From positions 1 through 9,142 of IMG/VR virus record IMGVR_UViG_3300039382_000253: a stretch of DNA of 9,142 nucleotides; one strand, 5' to 3'. Positions 1,822 to 7,820 of the stretch are shown here, piece by piece (position 1 is the stretch's first letter; each line of letters begins with the position of its first letter). The position numbers were made by a program, and so were the translations under genes. Below the pieces are notes generated by a model. It saw only the letters and a program-made list of their open reading frames with translations. It did no database searches and was not told where the DNA came from. The DNA comes from a virus (taxonomy: Duplodnaviria > Heunggongvirae > Uroviricota > Caudoviricetes).

Positions 1822-2379
1822 TCATGCAGCCTCCCGACGGGCAAGAATCCTTGAGCCGAACGCCATCAACTCTCCACGATCAACGGTCGTAAAGTGGCAG
1901 TGTGTACGGGGGTATGGGTGCCAGATAATGAGCATCGAGCCTTTATTATTTCCACTGACGGGTTTCTCAGTGAGTGGGTTAATAAATGCCAGTCGTCCTG
2001 CCGTGATGAATCTGACCTCACTGGCGGTTTGTATCGCTTCATGAAACCATCCGACAGATGTGTCAGCAGGCAATAACATTACACATCCCACACTACTGAA
2101 TTTGTTTTCAGTGGCTGCCTTTTTCACAAAAGGGGAAATATTGCTGTATGGTGGATTCAACCAGACATAACCAGAGGCATATCCCATTGCTTCAGGCCAT
2201 GAAGTGGTTAATGTGTTCTGCTCCTGTGAGATAAAAAGCCGACATAGTCGGTTTTTTTCGCTGGCGGCAGCATCAAGTTGAAAAACGAACTCTGCATTAA
2301 GCGCAGCAAAAATCTCTGGTGGTGTGCGCCAGCTGTCGCGATGTTCGGCAGGAGTATTGCTTCCGGTGAAATCAGTCAT
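1822..2379 (-). CDS. Phage Dam-family DNA N6-adenine methyltransferase (orphan)
   Basis: 185 aa containing WLNPPYSN, the (D/N)PPY catalytic motif IV of N6-adenine methyltransferases. ATG at 2379..2377 with a GGGGG SD about 5 nt upstream. No adjacent restriction endonuclease ORF. Confidence 0.75.
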   Translation of the reverse strand: MTDFTGSNTPAEHRDSWRTPPEIFAALNAEFVFQLDAAASEKNRLCRLFISQEQNTLTTSWPEAMGYASGYVWLNPPYSNISPFVKKAATENKFSSVGCVMLLPADTSVGWFHEAIQTASEVRFITAGRLAFINPLTEKPVSGNNKGSMLIIWHPYPRTHCHFTTVDRGELMAFGSRILARREAA

Positions 2380-2533
2380 ACAGCCCCCGTTTATTATTTA
2401 TCGCCTCAGCCAGCCGCTGTGCTTTCAGTGGATTTCTGATAACAGAAAGGCCGGGAAATACCCAGCCTCGCTTTGTAACGGAGTAGATGAAAGTGATCGC
2501 GCCTACCCGGATATTATCGTGAGGATGCTTCAT
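2372..2533 (-). CDS. Small 53-aa ORF immediately downstream of exo (lambda orf60a position)
   Basis: Hand-translated as [53 protein letters not shown]. Its ATG (2533..2531) overlaps the exo stop as ATGA, and its stop overlaps the Dam start (TATGACTGA). Not in the supplied ORF track, presumably because it is below the length cut-off. Confidence 0.45.
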
Positions 2534-3210
2534 CGCCATTGCTCCCCAAATACAAAACCAATTTCAGCCAGTGCCACGTCCATTTTTTCGATGAACTCCG
2601 GCACCATCTCGTCAAAATTCGCCATGTACTTTTCATTCCGCTCAATCACGACATAATGCAGGCCTTCACGCTTCATACGCGGGTCATAGTTGGCAAAGTA
2701 CCAGGCATCTTTTCGCGTCACCCACATGCTGTACTGCACCTGGGCCATGTAAGCCGATTTTATGGCCTCGAAACCACCGAGCCGGAACTTCATGAAATCC
2801 CGGGAGGTAAACGGGCATTTCAGTTCAAGGCCGTTGCCGTCACTGCATAAACCATCGGGAGAGCAGGCGGTGCGCATACTTTCGTCGCGATAGATGATCG
2901 GGGATTCAGTAACATTCACGCCGGAAGTGAATTCAAACAGGGTTCTGGCGTCGTTCTCGTACTGTTTTCCCCAGGCCAGCGCCTTAGCATTAACTTCCGG
3001 AGCCACACCGGTGCAAACCTCAGCCAGCAGGGTGTGGAAGTAGGACATTTTCATGTCAGGCCACTTCTTTCCTGAGCGGGGCTTTGCTATCACGTTGTGA
3101 ACTTCTGAAGCGGTGATGACGCCGAGCCGTAATTTGTGCCATGCATCATCCCCCTGTTCGACAGCTCTCACGTCGATCCCGGTACGCTGCAGGATAATGT
3201 CCGGTGTCAT
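2530..3210 (-). CDS. exo: Lambda-type 5'-3' exonuclease (Red alpha)
   Basis: 226 aa, [50 protein letters not shown]..., matches lambda Exo as recalled over essentially the full length. Start overlaps the bet stop (ATGA). Confidence 0.95.
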
Positions 3211-3992
3211 GCTGCCACCTTCTGCTCAGTGGCTTTCTGTTTCAGGAATCCAAGAGCTTTCACTGCTTCGGCCTGTGTCAGTTCTGACGATGCGCGAATG
3301 TCGCGGCGAAATATCTGGGAACAGAGCGGCAATAAGTCGTCATCCCATGTTTTATCCAGGGCGATCAGCAGAGTGTTAATCTCCTGCATGGTTTCATCGT
3401 TAACCGGAGTGATGTCGCGTTCTGGCTGACGTTCTGCAGTGTATGCAGTATTTTCGACAATGCGCTCGGCTTCATCCTTGTCATAGATACCAGCAAATCC
3501 GAAGGCCAGACGGGCACACTGAATCATGGCTTTATGCCGTAACATCCGTTTGGGATGCGACTGCCACGGCCCCGTGATTTCTCTGCCTTCGCGAGTTTTG
3601 AATGGTTCGCGGCGGCATTCATCCATCCATTCGGTAACGCAGATCGGATGATTACGGTCCTTGCGGTAAATCCGGCATGTACAGGATTCATTGTCCTGCT
3701 CAAAGTCCATGCCATCAAACTGCTGGTTTTCATTGATGATGCGGGACCAGCCATCAACGCCCACCACCGGAACGATGCCGTTCTGCTTATCAGGGAAGGC
3801 GTAAATTTCTTTCGTCCACGGATTAAGGCCGTACTGGTTGGCGACGATCAACAATGCGATGAACTGCGCATCGCTGGCATCACCTTTAAATGCCGTCTGG
3901 CGAAGAGTGGTGATCAGTTCCTGTGGGTCGACAGAATCCATGCCGACACGTTCAGCCAGCTTCCCTGCCAGCGTTGCGAGTGCTGTACTCAT
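3207..3992 (-). CDS. bet: Lambda Bet single-strand annealing protein (Red beta)
   Basis: 261 aa, [66 protein letters not shown]..., matches lambda Bet as recalled. Confidence 0.95.
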
Positions 3993-3997
3993 CCGTT

Positions 3998-4294
3998 TTA
4001 TACCTCTGAATCAATATCAACCTGGTGGTGAGCAATGGTTTCAACCATGTACTGGATGTGTTCTGCCATGCGCTCCTGAAACTCAACATCGTCATCAAAC
4101 GCACGGGTAATGGCTTTTTTGCTGGCCCCGTGGCGTTGCAAATGATCGATGCATAGCGATTCAAACAGGTGCTGGGGCAGGCCTTTTTCCATGTCGTCTG
4201 CCAGTTCTGCCTCTTTCTCTTCACGGGCGATCTGCTGGTAGTGACGCGCCCAGCTCTGAGCCTCAAGACGATCCTGAATGTAATAAGCGTTCAT
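3998..4294 (-). CDS. gam: Gam (GamS form), RecBCD inhibitor
   Basis: 98 aa, [60 protein letters not shown]..., matches lambda GamS. Upstream DNA is lambda-like but has a stop in the GamL frame and no in-frame ATG, so only the short form is encoded. Confidence 0.9.
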
Positions 4295-4369: not shown

Positions 4370-4660
4370 TTAGTGATTCAGGCCGTTACCGCGTCCGTCG
4401 AGAAAAACTTCCACGAGCAAATCACGGGTATAAGTGCGCTCGATGCCGCGATGCAGATAAAGCCGTCCGCGTAAATTAGCTGATGCAGTCCAGGTACCAT
4501 CTTTGTGTTTGACCAGCATTCCTGGCATGACCGCACCTCGATTAACGGTCTGCGTTCCATAATGTTGATGAACCATAAAAACTCCTGCCCGTAAGCTGGG
4601 CTGCTGAACATATAGAGACTTCTGCGCGTATTCAGGCGGTGGATGGCCGCCGGTTGTCAT
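4370..4660 (-). CDS. Hypothetical protein in the kil position, not homologous to lambda Kil; start uncertain (4660 gives 96 aa, 4576 gives 68 aa)
   Basis: Shares lambda kil's frame and stop codon (TAA inside TCACTAA) but its C-terminus (...[14 protein letters not shown]) is unlike lambda's (...WILILKLRSSKSIH, back-translated from recalled lambda DNA). The ATG at 4576..4574 has AGGAG 5 nt upstream; the ATG at 4660 has GAGG about 10 nt upstream. A second long frame overlaps it, so coding status is not certain. Confidence 0.4.
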
Positions 4661-4825
4661 AACTAAGCCGCCTCGTTGAAGCGACTAAGGTATGAAATGT
4701 TGAGTTAATTTCAGCTGGTCACACCGACGTTCACGCGTCCGTTTCACCCCTCGCACTCCCCGAAGCCTGCTGAAATTCAAACTGCGGATCTAAGCGGTCA
4801 TCGCAACGGTGAATCAGGTAGTTGC

Positions 4826-4900
4826 CGTATCGTTGTGTTGTTGCGATGAACTTATTTAAAACTATAGTTGTTTTATCGTCAACAACAAAAGTTGTTTTAT
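4826..4900 (-). promoter_or_regulatory. Putative oL/pL: operator-like repeats with a leftward promoter
   Basis: Palindrome AACAACAAAAGTTGTT at 4881-4896; 10-mer GTTGTTTTAT repeated at 4867-4876 and 4891-4900; GTTGTGTTGTTG at 4832-4843. Minus-strand -35 TTGACG (plus 4877-4882) with TTTAAA/TTAAAT 16-17 bp downstream. Half-sites resemble the oR sites. Confidence 0.4.
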
Positions 4901-5023
4901 TGGTTGCTTTAGATATAACTGGTTGTATTTAGGATGGATTTATTTTGTGACTTGAATCGCATAGCGATAACTGAAGCGAGGTTATGGTGGTTTTTTTAAC
5001 GGTGTGTGTGATGAGGGGAGGGC

Positions 5024-5171: not shown

Positions 5172-5861
5172 CTACCCATGCTTCCTATATGTCTGCGGCA
5201 TGCTCCCAATAACCTTACCGAAGATGAACACCCGGTTCATCTCGTCTTTCTCGATCGGGTCCCACGGTGAGTAGCTTTTGTTATCAGAGATGACCAGCAG
5301 CTTATCCTTCATCATTTGCAGGCGCTTTACATGGGCTGTGTCGTCGTACAGAAACGCATAGATACCATCACCGTCGAAAGATTTAACTGTGATATCAACG
5401 AACAGCAGATCACCTGGTTCGATCGTTCCTGACATGCTGTCACCACGCACGTTAATGATGCGGATATTTTCCGCCTTCCTACCATCGAACATGTGACGAG
5501 CATCGTCAAACGAGTACTCAACCGAGCGTAGAACTTCTACAAACTCACGGTTGATGACTCCCGGCCCAGCACTGACTTCTATATCAAGAACGTCAATCTT
5601 GAAGTATTTGGAATGGCTGACAGTTGATTGTATTGGTTGCACTGTACTGTCTGACATATTTCCAACGCCAGAAGATAACCATTCTGCGCGCACACCCAAA
5701 GCGTTCGCGATCTCCACGATTTTAGTTGTTTGATTAGCTTTCCCTGTTTCGATTTTCTGAATAGCAGCCTGGCTAACCCCGACCAAATCCCCAAGCGCCT
5801 TTTGTGTAAGGCCTCGCGCTAATCTGGCTTCTTTAAGTCTTTCTGAGAGTGTTGTTTTCAT
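5172..5861 (-). CDS. cI: CI-like prophage repressor (N-terminal HTH, C-terminal S24/LexA-like autopeptidase domain)
   Basis: HTH in LTQKALGDLVGVSQAAIQKIETG; Ala-Gly in the linker (VSAGPG); Ser in VRGDSMSG and Lys in HVKRL as the S24 catalytic dyad. Preferred start is the ATG at 5861..5859 (229 aa) with no SD, consistent with a leaderless pRM transcript. The open frame extends to 5927 but would run through the operators. Confidence 0.85.
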   Translation of the reverse strand: MKTTLSERLKEARLARGLTQKALGDLVGVSQAAIQKIETGKANQTTKIVEIANALGVRAEWLSSGVGNMSDSTVQPIQSTVSHSKYFKIDVLDIEVSAGPGVINREFVEVLRSVEYSFDDARHMFDGRKAENIRIINVRGDSMSGTIEPGDLLFVDITVKSFDGDGIYAFLYDDTAHVKRLQMMKDKLLVISDNKSYSPWDPIEKDEMNRVFIFGKVIGSMPQTYRKHG

Positions 5862-5965
5862 AGTCCAAATGTACAACCAAGGTTTTATTCCATCAAACGA
5901 AAATGGTTGTTGACTAAAAACAACCATGGTTTTAATCTTGATTCAAATTAACCACGGAGGTTGTT
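5862..5965. promoter_or_regulatory. oR-like switch region: three operator-like sites with divergent pR (rightward) and pRM (leftward)
   Basis: Sites ACAACCAAGGTTTT (5873-5886), AAAATGGTTGTT (5900-5911, reverse orientation AACAACCATTTT) and AACAACCATGGTTTT (5919-5933). pR: -35 TTGACT 5910-5915, 17-bp spacer, -10 TAATCT 5933-5938. pRM on the minus strand: -35 TTGATG (plus 5891-5896), 17-bp spacer, -10 TACATT (plus 5868-5873), 6 nt before the repressor ATG. Confidence 0.55.
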
Positions 5966-6196
5966 ATGAACCCAGCTATCAAAACAGCGATCAATATCGT
6001 TGGTTCACAAAAGAAACTGGGCGCTGCTTGCGAAGTTTCACAGCAGGCCGTCTATAAGTGGCTTCACAACAAAGCAAAGGTATCCCCTGAACATGTCGGC
6101 AGCATTGTTACGGCTACTGGTGGAGTAGTGAAGGCATACCAGATTCGCCCGGATCTTCCGAAGTTGTTTCCACACACCGAAAAGAACGCAGCTTAA
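5966..6196 (+). CDS. Cro-like small HTH regulator (YdaS-like family)
   Basis: 76 aa; GGAGG SD at 5956-5960; HTH in GSQKKLGAACEVSQQAVYKWLHN; first gene downstream of pR. The ATGG-V motif and overall pattern resemble Rac YdaS as I recall it. Confidence 0.75.
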   Translation: MNPAIKTAINIVGSQKKLGAACEVSQQAVYKWLHNKAKVSPEHVGSIVTATGGVVKAYQIRPDLPKLFPHTEKNAA

Positions 6197-6208
6197 ATTT
6201 CCATTTCA

Positions 6209-6221
6209 CGCTCTTTAACAA
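6209..6221 (+). promoter_or_regulatory. boxA-like element (CGCTCTTTAACAA) in the cro-cII intergenic region
   Basis: 12 of 13 positions match the rrn boxA consensus TGCTCTTTAACAA and it resembles lambda nut boxA (CGCTCTTA). It sits where nutR lies in lambda. No convincing boxB hairpin follows. Confidence 0.4.
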
Positions 6222-6264
6222 TAAGCAATCAACTTAACAGTCAATTCAAACTAAAGGAGCAATT

Positions 6265-6804
6265 ATGCAACCACTTACATACCAACAGACTAGCGGATTT
6301 AGCCCGACTGCGGTGATAAATCGTTCTCAAACAAAACAGGTGCCAGGCCACGAAAAAATCCGTGATGCCGTCCGCGCCTGGTCGGCTGTAGATAATCAGG
6401 ATGTCGTTGCCACACTCATTGTGAATGAGTATCGGGAGCAGGGCGGCGGCACCATCGATTTCCCTGATGATGTCAGCCGTGCACGCCAGAAGCTGTTCCG
6501 CTTCCTCGATAACAAATTCGATTCTGAAAAATACCGAAATAACGTGCGTGAACTGACCCCGGCAATTCTGGCGGTACTACCGCTGGAATATCGCGGTTAC
6601 CTGGTTGAGCAGGATAGCTTCATGGCTAGGTTGGCTGAAATGGAAAAGGAACTCAGTGAGGCAAAACAGGCTGTCATTCTCAACGCACCACGCCACCAGA
6701 AACTGAAGGAAATTAGTGAAGGTATTGTGTCGATGTTTCGTGTGGACCCAGATCTGGCTGGTCCATTGATGGCGATGGTTACTACCATGCTGGGGGCGAT
6801 ATGA
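6265..6804 (+). CDS. 179-aa protein in the cII position, possibly a YdaT-like regulator
   Basis: AAGGAG SD at 6254-6259, 5 nt before the ATG. No similarity to lambda CII. C-terminal region (LAEMEKELSEAKQAVILNAP...) looks like an amphipathic helix or coiled coil. Family assignment is tentative and from memory only. Confidence 0.55.
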   Translation: MQPLTYQQTSGFSPTAVINRSQTKQVPGHEKIRDAVRAWSAVDNQDVVATLIVNEYREQGGGTIDFPDDVSRARQKLFRFLDNKFDSEKYRNNVRELTPAILAVLPLEYRGYLVEQDSFMARLAEMEKELSEAKQAVILNAPRHQKLKEISEGIVSMFRVDPDLAGPLMAMVTTMLGAI

Positions 6805-6890: not shown

Positions 6891-7820
6891 ATGGCAAACA
6901 CTGCTGAGATATTCAATTTTCCAGTGCCGGATGCGGCACAAAAGGAGCCGCGCGTGGCAGATCTCGATGATGGTTATACGCGCATTGCAAATGAGTTGCT
7001 GGAAGCTGTGATGCTGGCCGGATTAACACAGCACCAGCTTCTGGTCTTTCTGGCTGTCATGCGCAAAACATATGGCTTTAATAAAAAACTGGATTGGGTT
7101 AGCAACGAGCAACTTTCCGAATTAACCGGGATATTGCCGCACAAGTGTTCTGCTGCAAAAAGTGTTCTGGTAAAGCGTGGGATTTTTATTCAGAGCGGGC
7201 GGAATACCGGCATTAATAATGTGGTCAGTGAATGGTCAACATTACCCGAATCAGGTAAGAAAAATAAAGTTTACCTGAAAGAGGTAAATTTACCTGAATC
7301 AGGTAAAAAAAGTTTACCCAAATCAGGTAAAGGCGTTTACCCGAATCAGGTAAACACAAAAGACAAACTAACAAAAGACAATATAAAACCTTTTTCGTCC
7401 GAGAATTCTGGCGAATCCTCTGACCAACCAGAAAACGATCTTCCTGTGGTGAAACCGGATGCTGCAATTCAGAGCGGCAGCAAGTGGGGGACAGCAGAAG
7501 ACCTGACCGCCGCAGAGTGGATGTTTGACATGGTGAAGACCATCGCGCCATCAGCCAGAAAACCGAATTTTGCAGGGTGGGCTAACGATATCCGCCTGAT
7601 GCGTGAACGTGACGGACGTAACCACCGCGACATGTGCGTGCTGTTCCGCTGGGCATGCCAGGACAACTTCTGGTCCGGTAACGTGCTAAGTCCGGCCAAA
7701 CTCCGCGACAAGTGGACCCAGCTCGAAATCAACCGAAACAAGCAACAGGCTGGCGTGACAGCCGGCAAACCAAAACTCGACCTGACGAACACTGACTGGA
7801 TTTACGGGGTGGAGCTATGA
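6891..7820 (+). CDS. O: Replication initiator O (lambda O-like), containing the origin iterons
   Basis: Preferred start ATG 6891 with GGGAGGAA SD, giving MANTAEIFNF (lambda O begins MTNTAKILNF). VADLDDGYTRIANELLEA and LTQHQLLVFLAVMRKTYGFNKK match the lambda O N-terminal domain. The open frame extends upstream to 6801. Stop overlaps the P start (ATGA). Confidence 0.85.
   Translation: MANTAEIFNFPVPDAAQKEPRVADLDDGYTRIANELLEAVMLAGLTQHQLLVFLAVMRKTYGFNKKLDWVSNEQLSELTGILPHKCSAAKSVLVKRGIFIQSGRNTGINNVVSEWSTLPESGKKNKVYLKEVNLPESGKKSLPKSGKGVYPNQVNTKDKLTKDNIKPFSSENSGESSDQPENDLPVVKPDAAIQSGSKWGTAEDLTAAEWMFDMVKTIAPSARKPNFAGWANDIRLMRERDGRNHRDMCVLFRWACQDNFWSGNVLSPAKLRDKWTQLEINRNKQQAGVTAGKPKLDLTNTDWIYGVEL
7241..7395. 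repeat. Origin of replication: five 17-bp palindromic iterons followed by an A/T-rich stretch, inside O
   Basis: TTACC(C/T)(G/A)AA(T/G)(C/A)AGGTAA-type iterons at 7241-7257, 7270-7286 (variant TTACCTGAAAGAGGTAA), 7289-7305, 7313-7329 and 7336-7352, then A/T-rich 7353-7395. Same architecture as ori-lambda. Confidence 0.75.

Follow-up and report, generated by a model that had tools for sequence, protein, structure and literature searches.

A very common type of Escherichia coli prophage possesses neither N and its nut sites nor put RNA, but carries a boxA of the host type at the position of nutR. We encountered this boxA downstream of cro in 9,142 nt of phage DNA (the whole stretch is called the window in the following), which by its gene content is the early region of a DLP12/Bievrevirus-like lambdoid prophage without N. 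The identity, position and conservation of the motif, its descent from nutR and the loss of boxB, N and nutL are observations from the sequences compared below. Since a 12-nt deletion left only the 3′ arm of the hairpin that formerly followed it, the boxA of the window represents the surviving half of a decaying nutR. We consider the chances about even that this orphan boxA would still load NusB/S10 and partly shield the pR transcription unit from Rho. The lambda N protein with its nut sites is the textbook system of processive antitermination, with the put RNA of phage HK022 as the known protein-free alternative; our literature searches turned up no description of a boxA orphaned in this way in a lambdoid phage without N.

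Gene content of the window and its closest phage relative

From position 2377 on, the window is 99% identical to phage PhiR34_1, for which a complete genome of 44.6 kb is available and E. coli K-12 is the recorded host; the environmental isolate IdasGreatGrand is also close to the window. PhiR34_1 continues with emrE-ybcK-ybcL-ybcM-ybcN-ninE-ybcO-rusA-ylcG-Q-nmpC, and because of this gene order from emrE through Q-nmpC we regard it as a functional DLP12-like phage. The arrangement of cro, spacer and ydaT-type gene is found in ~1,500 of 5,426 complete E. coli genomes (~28%). At its left end (1–755), the window harbors a fragment of an IS3-family transposase (OrfB-like) in place of the int end, which PhiR34_1 possesses at this site, and the homology to PhiR34_1 picks up again at position 756 after the transposase fragment. 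The prophage in the window is probably defective for excision. A mosaic replacement is apparent at 1826–2376, a segment not common to PhiR34_1, where an ORF of 185 aa (1822–2379, minus strand) replaces the orf63 region of the latter.

The genes exo, bet and gam are located at 2530–4294 on the minus strand. The kil profile phrog_294 aligns with an ORF of 96 aa (4370–4660) only from about residue 20, and the likelier kil start is an ATG at ~4579 (minus strand) that is equipped with a strong AGGAG Shine-Dalgarno sequence. Upstream of this start, a segment encoding 'MTTGGHPPP' and a hairpin at the ribosome-binding site (CUUAGUCGCUUCAACGAGGCGGCUUAG) are conserved in many otherwise different prophages including HK225. 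A pL-like promoter was read from the sequence at 4882–4854 on the minus strand (TTGACG 4882–4877, 17 nt, TTAAAT 4859–4854). The gene of a cI-type repressor with HTH and S24 peptidase domains (5172–5861, minus strand) was assigned as an ORF with a family match and is followed on its 3′ side by a terminator (5050–5033, minus strand). The pR-like promoter (5910–5938, plus strand; TTGACT 5910–5915, 17 nt, TAATCT 5933–5938) overlaps the operators and mirrors the pL promoter and its operators (inverted repeats I1 and I2); the same pR promoter and operators are also present in three of the relatives discussed below (L114, L115 and L118). This promoter is predicted to transcribe cro together with the boxA.

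The cro gene (5966–6196, plus strand, stop codon TAA at 6194–6196) encodes an HTH protein of the YdaS family with 76 aa that is annotated as Cro in PhiR34_1, and 120 homologues of this product carry PF15943. A spacer of 68 nt (6197–6264, plus strand) separates the cro stop codon from the ATG of a cII-like gene of the YdaT family (6265–6804, plus strand, or 6255–6804 counted from the Shine-Dalgarno sequence AGGAG at 6255–6259). Its product of 179 aa matches PF06254 at 8.5e-30 as well as phrog_163, 'CII-like transcriptional activator', and the mosaic junction with 4A7-type phages falls exactly on its ATG. In the window, the distance between Shine-Dalgarno sequence and ATG of this gene is 1 nt shorter, with one T missing at 6259/6260 (AGGAG-CAATT versus AGGAGTCAATT); the T-less allele is rare (4 of 138 IMG/VR hits from two overlapping scans) and most copies keep the T. 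The genes O, P and ren follow the cII-like gene on the plus strand. O contains five iteron-like repeats TTACC(C/T)GAATCAGGTAA at 7242–7358, which likely constitute the replication origin, and an Rfam scan of the whole window at a permissive E-value returned as its sole match rliD (E = 0.69), a chance match on these iterons.

A consensus boxA in the spacer between cro and the cII-like gene

The element is an exact 13-mer, CGCTCTTTAACAA, at 6209–6221 on the plus strand, the core of which (GCTCTTTAACA, 6210–6220) fits GYTCTTTAANA, the experimentally derived consensus of functional boxA sites (PMC5725501). The cro stop codon lies 12 nt upstream and the ATG of the cII-like gene 44 nt downstream of the element, which is on the cro strand, ~265 nt into the predicted pR transcript. 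An earlier note on this DNA had described a near-consensus boxA downstream of cro that sits at the nutR position and matches the rrn consensus better than the lambda nut boxA does. Both the position (12 nt after the cro stop codon here, 8 nt in lambda) and the ranking hold, with 12 of 13 nucleotides identical to the rrn boxA TGCTCTTTAACAA, against 9 of 13 for the boxA of lambda nutR (CGCTCTTACACAT). The window holds one exact copy of CGCTCTTTAACAA, and the three other hits obtained at ≤3 mismatches correspond to the chance expectation. On both strands of the complete PhiR34_1 genome, the boxA of the window is the single match to the boxA consensus. By our own calculation, the 68-nt spacer, with its base composition rich in C and poor in G (15 C, 6 G), would contain GYTCTTTAANA by chance with p ~3e-4. 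Judged by sequence, the element is an authentic boxA, that is, the RNA site bound by the heterodimer of NusB and S10 (NusE).

The same note had missed a boxB, a boxA on the pL side and an N gene, and these three absences were confirmed, for N with the reservation of a putative arginine-rich ORF in the pL leader that is described below. The region of 111 nt round the boxA folds at −5.9 kcal/mol (z = +0.39), which is no better than shuffled sequence, and a hairpin scan of the 48 nt after the boxA came out empty, unlike in every relative examined. Near pL, no boxA was found within 1 mismatch; N is not among the ORFs of the window, and no N ORF exists between pL and kil. The search of the full prophage that had been recommended there yielded neither an N-like protein nor a second boxA in the complete 44.6-kb genome of PhiR34_1, which is also devoid of an annotated N. 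A pairing of the boxA (GCUCUUU) with the Shine-Dalgarno region of the cII-like gene was considered as well and rejected, given its low stability (−5.9 kcal/mol) and its lack of conservation among relatives.

Descent of the boxA from nutR

For a comparison with related prophages, we aligned Cro homologues and retrieved 27 loci of various Enterobacterales species along with the nearest relatives by exact-protein look-up, which gave 33 usable loci; a boxA was called in these relatives at ≤1 mismatch in GCTCTTTAA. Conservation of the motif in related prophages, on which the earlier note had staked its reading, was indeed found, as 24 of the 33 diverged cro-homologue loci possess a boxA 7–24 nt after the cro stop codon. 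A stem-loop is present 3′ of the boxA in all of these boxA-bearing loci (24/33) except the window. Among the relatives, the boxA is the most conserved block of the post-cro spacer, GCTCTTTAA being invariant amid diverged flanks.

The distant relatives, the Cro proteins of which are 63–79% identical to that of the window, derive from Pantoea, Erwinia, Photorhabdus, Xenorhabdus, Providencia, Arsenophonus, Rouxiella and others. On the left side of cI, they harbor a second boxA-boxB site (nutL) and after it an arginine-rich ORF; three of these ORFs match phrog_271, the PHROG family 'anti-termination protein N-like'. Since the N-like ORFs match the N family of PHROG, the motif in the distant relatives is a canonical nutR boxA, and the hairpins after their cro genes presumably resemble the boxB elements of lambda and P22.

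The closest relatives (L114–L118) are uncharacterised prophages with Cro proteins 80–84% identical to that of the window and the same operators. In these, the boxA is followed by a spacer of 18–19 nt and a hairpin GGCUGA-(GAAA/GGAA/AUUA)-UCAGCC, with diverged flanks and a next gene that is either of the YdaT type (L114) or of the lambda-CII type (L115–L118). The distance from the boxA to the next start codon ranges from ~44 to >100 nt in relatives, and the gap from the cro stop codon is short and fixed. Neither an N protein nor a consensus boxA was found on the pL side of L114–L118 by ORF inspection and a PHROG scan of ~3.5 kb. That boxA and hairpin are kept in these N-less prophages despite diverged flanks suggests N-independent selection on the site. 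The spacer between boxA and hairpin of the closest relatives had no match in phage records. On the evidence of these alignments, the boxA of the window is a descendant of a nutR that accompanies cro genes of this family.

In HK639 and in sister phages of the 4A7/Bievrevirus type, which have another immunity type and are without N, cro is separated from the same cII-like gene by only 30 nt, in which no boxA is present. In cro modules without boxA (phage 4A7, L003 in our set, at 4960–4985, and L006–L008), a small hairpin extends across the cro stop codon, either GCCGCC-TAATCT-GCGGC or GCCGCCTGACCGGCGGC, and a hairpin at this location recurs across immunity types.

Loss of the hairpin by a 12-nt deletion

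The boxA of the window is followed by TAAGCAATCAAC (6222–6233, plus strand), which according to our alignments A3 and A4 is homologous to the 18–19-nt spacer that separates boxA and hairpin in the relatives. The adjoining TTAACAGTC (6234–6242, plus strand) is the scar of a deletion, with 12 nt (TTAACAGACTGA) missing in comparison to AR13438-type copies. In the AR13438-type allele, which is carried by ~87 complete E. coli genomes, the 12 extra nt create a hairpin GACUG-AUUAA-CAGUC, of which only the 3′ arm CAGTC (6238–6242) is left in the window, and the deletion lies between TTAACAG direct repeats. The AR13438-type hairpin aligns with the hairpin of the relatives, and in this E. coli form G-C has been replaced by A-U in a compensatory change; likewise, the 3′ arm CAGTC of the window aligns with the 3′ arm of the L114–L118 hairpin. 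Compared with its counterparts, the hairpin kept by the ~87 E. coli genomes is a degenerate one. The deleted allele is present in ~1,428 complete E. coli genomes and in all the sequenced phages, and is ~16 times commoner than the hairpin form. Viable phages with this module carry the hairpin-less form, together with no N and no second boxA. The loci compared form a series of nut-site decay that leads from a complete nutR with N via boxA and hairpin without N to boxA alone.

The copies compared within E. coli comprise ~1,500 genomes and 138 IMG/VR hits from two overlapping scans and are nearly identical. A substitution within the boxA (CGCTCTTTGACAA) occurs as one haplotype in 2 of the 138 IMG/VR hits, a rate no lower than that of the flanking spacer. 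Since the copies are almost invariant across the 138 hits, a test for selection on the boxA is powerless on this sample.

Possible function of the solitary boxA

A retained activity of the boxA in antitermination could be envisaged as follows. The nascent pR RNA would present the consensus boxA in an unstructured context, to which NusB/S10 would bind. Together with NusA, NusG and SuhB, the heterodimer would assemble into a complex of the rrn type that stays attached to RNA polymerase, and this complex would partly protect the ~8.7-kb unit from pR to Q from Rho-dependent termination with no phage protein needed. At CRISPR arrays and rrn operons, a boxA by itself suffices for recruitment of the Nus/SuhB complex and for a block of Rho (PMC7665894), and boxB matters little for rrn antitermination (reviewed in PMC12360218). 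A simple scan found no strong intrinsic terminator on the plus strand between cro and Q, and hence any barrier in this interval is more likely Rho-dependent. The pR-to-Q unit contains moron genes and untranslated gaps. Against a function speaks that the genes between cro and ren are closely spaced and that translation probably shields them from Rho. Moreover, the conserved unit in the closest relatives consists of boxA and hairpin, and the loss of the hairpin may have inactivated the site.

It is possible, if less than probable, that the boxA is a pure relic of nutR, non-functional and too young to have decayed, and that early transcription needs no boxA. The lack of strong terminators, the translational coupling of the genes, or the pL leader or other devices would then suffice. 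Because the ~1,500 E. coli copies and the 138 IMG/VR hits are nearly identical, the intact consensus may be no more than a sign of young age, and conservation within E. coli is uninformative in this respect. The boxA substitution and changes at flanking sites are equally infrequent, and the hairpin partner was deleted without evident cost, given that the deleted form is the far commoner one and occurs in viable phages. Furthermore, 4A7 and HK639 manage with their 30 nt and no boxA in front of the same cII-like gene. A mere remnant is harder to reconcile with the boxA core being invariant in diverged N-less relatives, the flanking spacer of which has changed extensively, and binding of NusB/S10 is to be expected for any nascent transcript with a consensus boxA, irrespective of where that boxA came from (PMC7665894, PMC5725501). 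If inert, the site would be a dated example of the erosion of a regulatory site after modular exchange.

With a start codon 44 nt downstream, a boxA can also repress rather than protect, as in suhB. Applied to the window, NusB/S10 at the boxA would lower translation of the cII-like gene and promote Rho polarity on the cII-like gene, O and P, by which the decision between lysis and lysogeny would be tuned to host Nus factor levels and growth rate. We judge such a negative role unlikely. The suhB boxA does work in this manner (PMC5725501; review PMC12360218), the boxA studied here lies inside the 50-nt range used to predict such regulators (PMC5725501), as 44 nt lie between the end of its 11-mer (6220) and the ATG (6265), and the spacer is C-rich and G-poor, as rut sites are. 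However, the boxA in relatives is tied to cro and not to the next gene, both the distance to the start codon and the type of this gene being variable, and the ancestral role of the site is antitermination.

Should the orphan boxA instead be active as a host-type antiterminator, which is the reading we prefer, phages of this type would use the host rRNA antitermination complex directly, and their development would be linked to Nus/SuhB levels and growth rate.

The pL leader and the search for a phage partner

The pL leader of the window spans ~185 nt (4661–4847, minus strand) and occupies the slot that is taken by putL in L114 and HK639. Neither a boxA, a boxB nor N was found in it, and a second boxA-boxB site (nutL) was not detected in this leader either. 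It is 95–100% conserved in 16 phages of different immunity types and opens with a 10-bp stem UCAUCGCAAC...GUUGCGAUGA. RNA folding of the leader gave z = −0.77, and the pairs predicted by RNAalifold and in the MFE structure received no support from the SNPs of 29 haplotypes. No similarity to put was found in the pL leader or after cro by BLAST with HK022 putL/putR and L114 putL, or by nhmmer with a profile of related leaders. The same searches do recover the putL of L114, which is 82% identical to HK022 putL over 68 nt. An alignment of put with 'type iii' leaders yielded no usable consensus.

Within the leader, a putative arginine-rich ORF of 31 codons with a TTG start (MNFSRLRGVRGVKRTRERRCDQLKLTQHFIP; 4685–4780, minus strand) is located at the N position. 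Its KRTRERR segment presumably resembles the arginine-rich RNA-binding motifs of lambda and P22 N. Searches with Pfam, PHROG and tblastn returned no family match for this ORF and no homologue outside the same 16 phages.

The earlier note had suggested a NusB/NusE-dependent signal with a partner yet to be discovered. The first part stands insofar as the element is a NusB/NusE site by sequence, but the partner was lost rather than hidden elsewhere in the prophage. That the boxA acts with an unrecognised phage partner, either the 31-codon ORF as a minimal N-like peptide or the pL leader as a put-like RNA, is in our view quite improbable. The ORF is the only intergenic arginine-rich one in the whole phage and sits exactly at the N position; its three commonest SNPs are synonymous, and the change from TTG to GTG in two haplotypes keeps the start. 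On the other hand, it possesses no Shine-Dalgarno sequence, and its stop codon is polymorphic (TAG/CAG), with CAG in 18 of 29 haplotypes, from where the frame continues into the kil-leader ORF. Its substitutions are spread evenly over the codon positions (9, 5 and 5 by our own event count), it matches no family, and no hairpin for an arginine-rich peptide is left on the pR side. As regards a leader RNA, the conservation across immunity types and the replacement of putL of L114/HK639 would fit, but no put similarity was seen in the leader, its fold is without SNP support, and known put RNAs act in cis only.

Several leaders of the relatives are of note in their own right. In L114 (Logan contig ERR1015440; the nearest Cro relative, 84% identical), the same pL promoter as in the window is followed by a putL of the HK639/HK022 type at ~1470–1350 (minus strand), and the boxA-hairpin site is present after cro; a put element and a boxA-hairpin site thus coexist in one N-less phage. 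The putL of HK639 (L240 in our set) was taken from the GenBank annotation, where it is described as a putL-like antiterminator RNA in the pL leader, and lies at 9313–9188 (minus strand). Long untranslated pL leaders on the minus strand are found in L115 (1370–1130), L117, L116, L008, L006 and L118. Leaders of the L115 type begin with a 5′ hairpin GCUGAGCGAAGUUAGC that is similar to the post-cro hairpin, followed by a hairpin directly before a near-boxA, UGCUUUUUAACAA. This order of hairpin and boxA is rrn-like, and a GC-rich segment reminiscent of put comes next. No N was found in the phages with such leaders, which may represent an undescribed leader type.

A reason for the retention of the motif at the DNA level on the other strand, be it a pRE-like promoter or a binding site of the cII-like protein, is highly improbable: prophages of the YdaT type do possess a YdaT-activated pRE and an operator at the ydaS-ydaT junction, as known for YdaT in CP-933P (PMC8630535, PMC9986795), and by our own reading the reverse strand across the boxA contains TTGATT, 18 nt, TGAAAT, but the TTGATTN6AATCAA repeat is absent, the motif is also part of nutR in N-encoding relatives, where it is duplicated at nutL, and we reject this explanation because the motif is conserved before YdaT-type and lambda-CII-type genes alike. 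The operator of CP-933P is not transferable to the window, since its cII-like protein has no detectable PDB relative.

The preferred reading of a host-type antiterminator can be extended, with more reservation, to the proposal that N-less lambdoid phages of this kind (~28% of complete E. coli genomes) use the rrn-type machinery of the host via a solitary consensus boxA after cro to carry pR transcription to Q. Lambdoid phages would then have a third mode of early antitermination in addition to N/nut and put RNA. Linked to this, the pL leader with its 31-codon ORF would be a new cis- or trans-acting device that replaces putL. We regard this combined picture as tentative.

Comparison with known antitermination sites

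The site in the window agrees with lambda nutR in the strand, the boxA core and the short distance to the cro stop codon (12 nt here, 8 nt in lambda), and differs from it in that lambda possesses the boxB hairpin, N and nutL, all three of which the window is without. In addition, the gap between cro and the cII-type gene is 68 nt in the window and 118 nt in lambda, which leaves little room for a Rho terminator of the tR1 type. Sites of the rrn type have the order boxB-boxA-boxC, whereas the boxA of the window is flanked by unstructured, A/T/C-rich sequence with no boxB hairpin upstream, and a GU-rich element of the rrn boxC kind is absent after it.

HK022 and HK639 are N-less lambdoid phages like that of the window, and L114 shares its pL promoter and operators with the latter. 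The window, however, has no detectable put homologue on either side and no Rfam match to put. Put RNAs are ~70-nt structures of two stems that bind the zinc-binding domain of beta′ (PMC9378689), whereas a boxA is a single-stranded protein-binding site of 11–13 nt.

With the class of boxA sites as a whole, the element shares the match to the consensus, the location on the strand predicted to be transcribed, in RNA predicted to be single-stranded, and the conservation relative to its flanks, and it would be expected to bind NusB/S10. The boxA elements of rrn leaders and spacers, of CRISPR leaders in Salmonella and Vibrio and of the suhB 5′UTR are solitary, as in the window, and a consensus boxA acts without a phage protein via NusB/E, NusA, NusG and SuhB (PMC7665894, PMC5725501, PMC12360218). 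The rrn and CRISPR elements precede long untranslated RNAs and the suhB boxA precedes one regulated gene, whereas the boxA of the window lies inside a translated phage operon. As at suhB, it is located ≤50 nt upstream of a start codon, and repression at this site would be by analogy. The sites of L114–L118, the closest N-less relatives, agree with that of the window in the boxA and its distance from cro, and the spacers are homologous; they kept the hairpin of the GNRA type, the 5′ arm of which was lost in the window.
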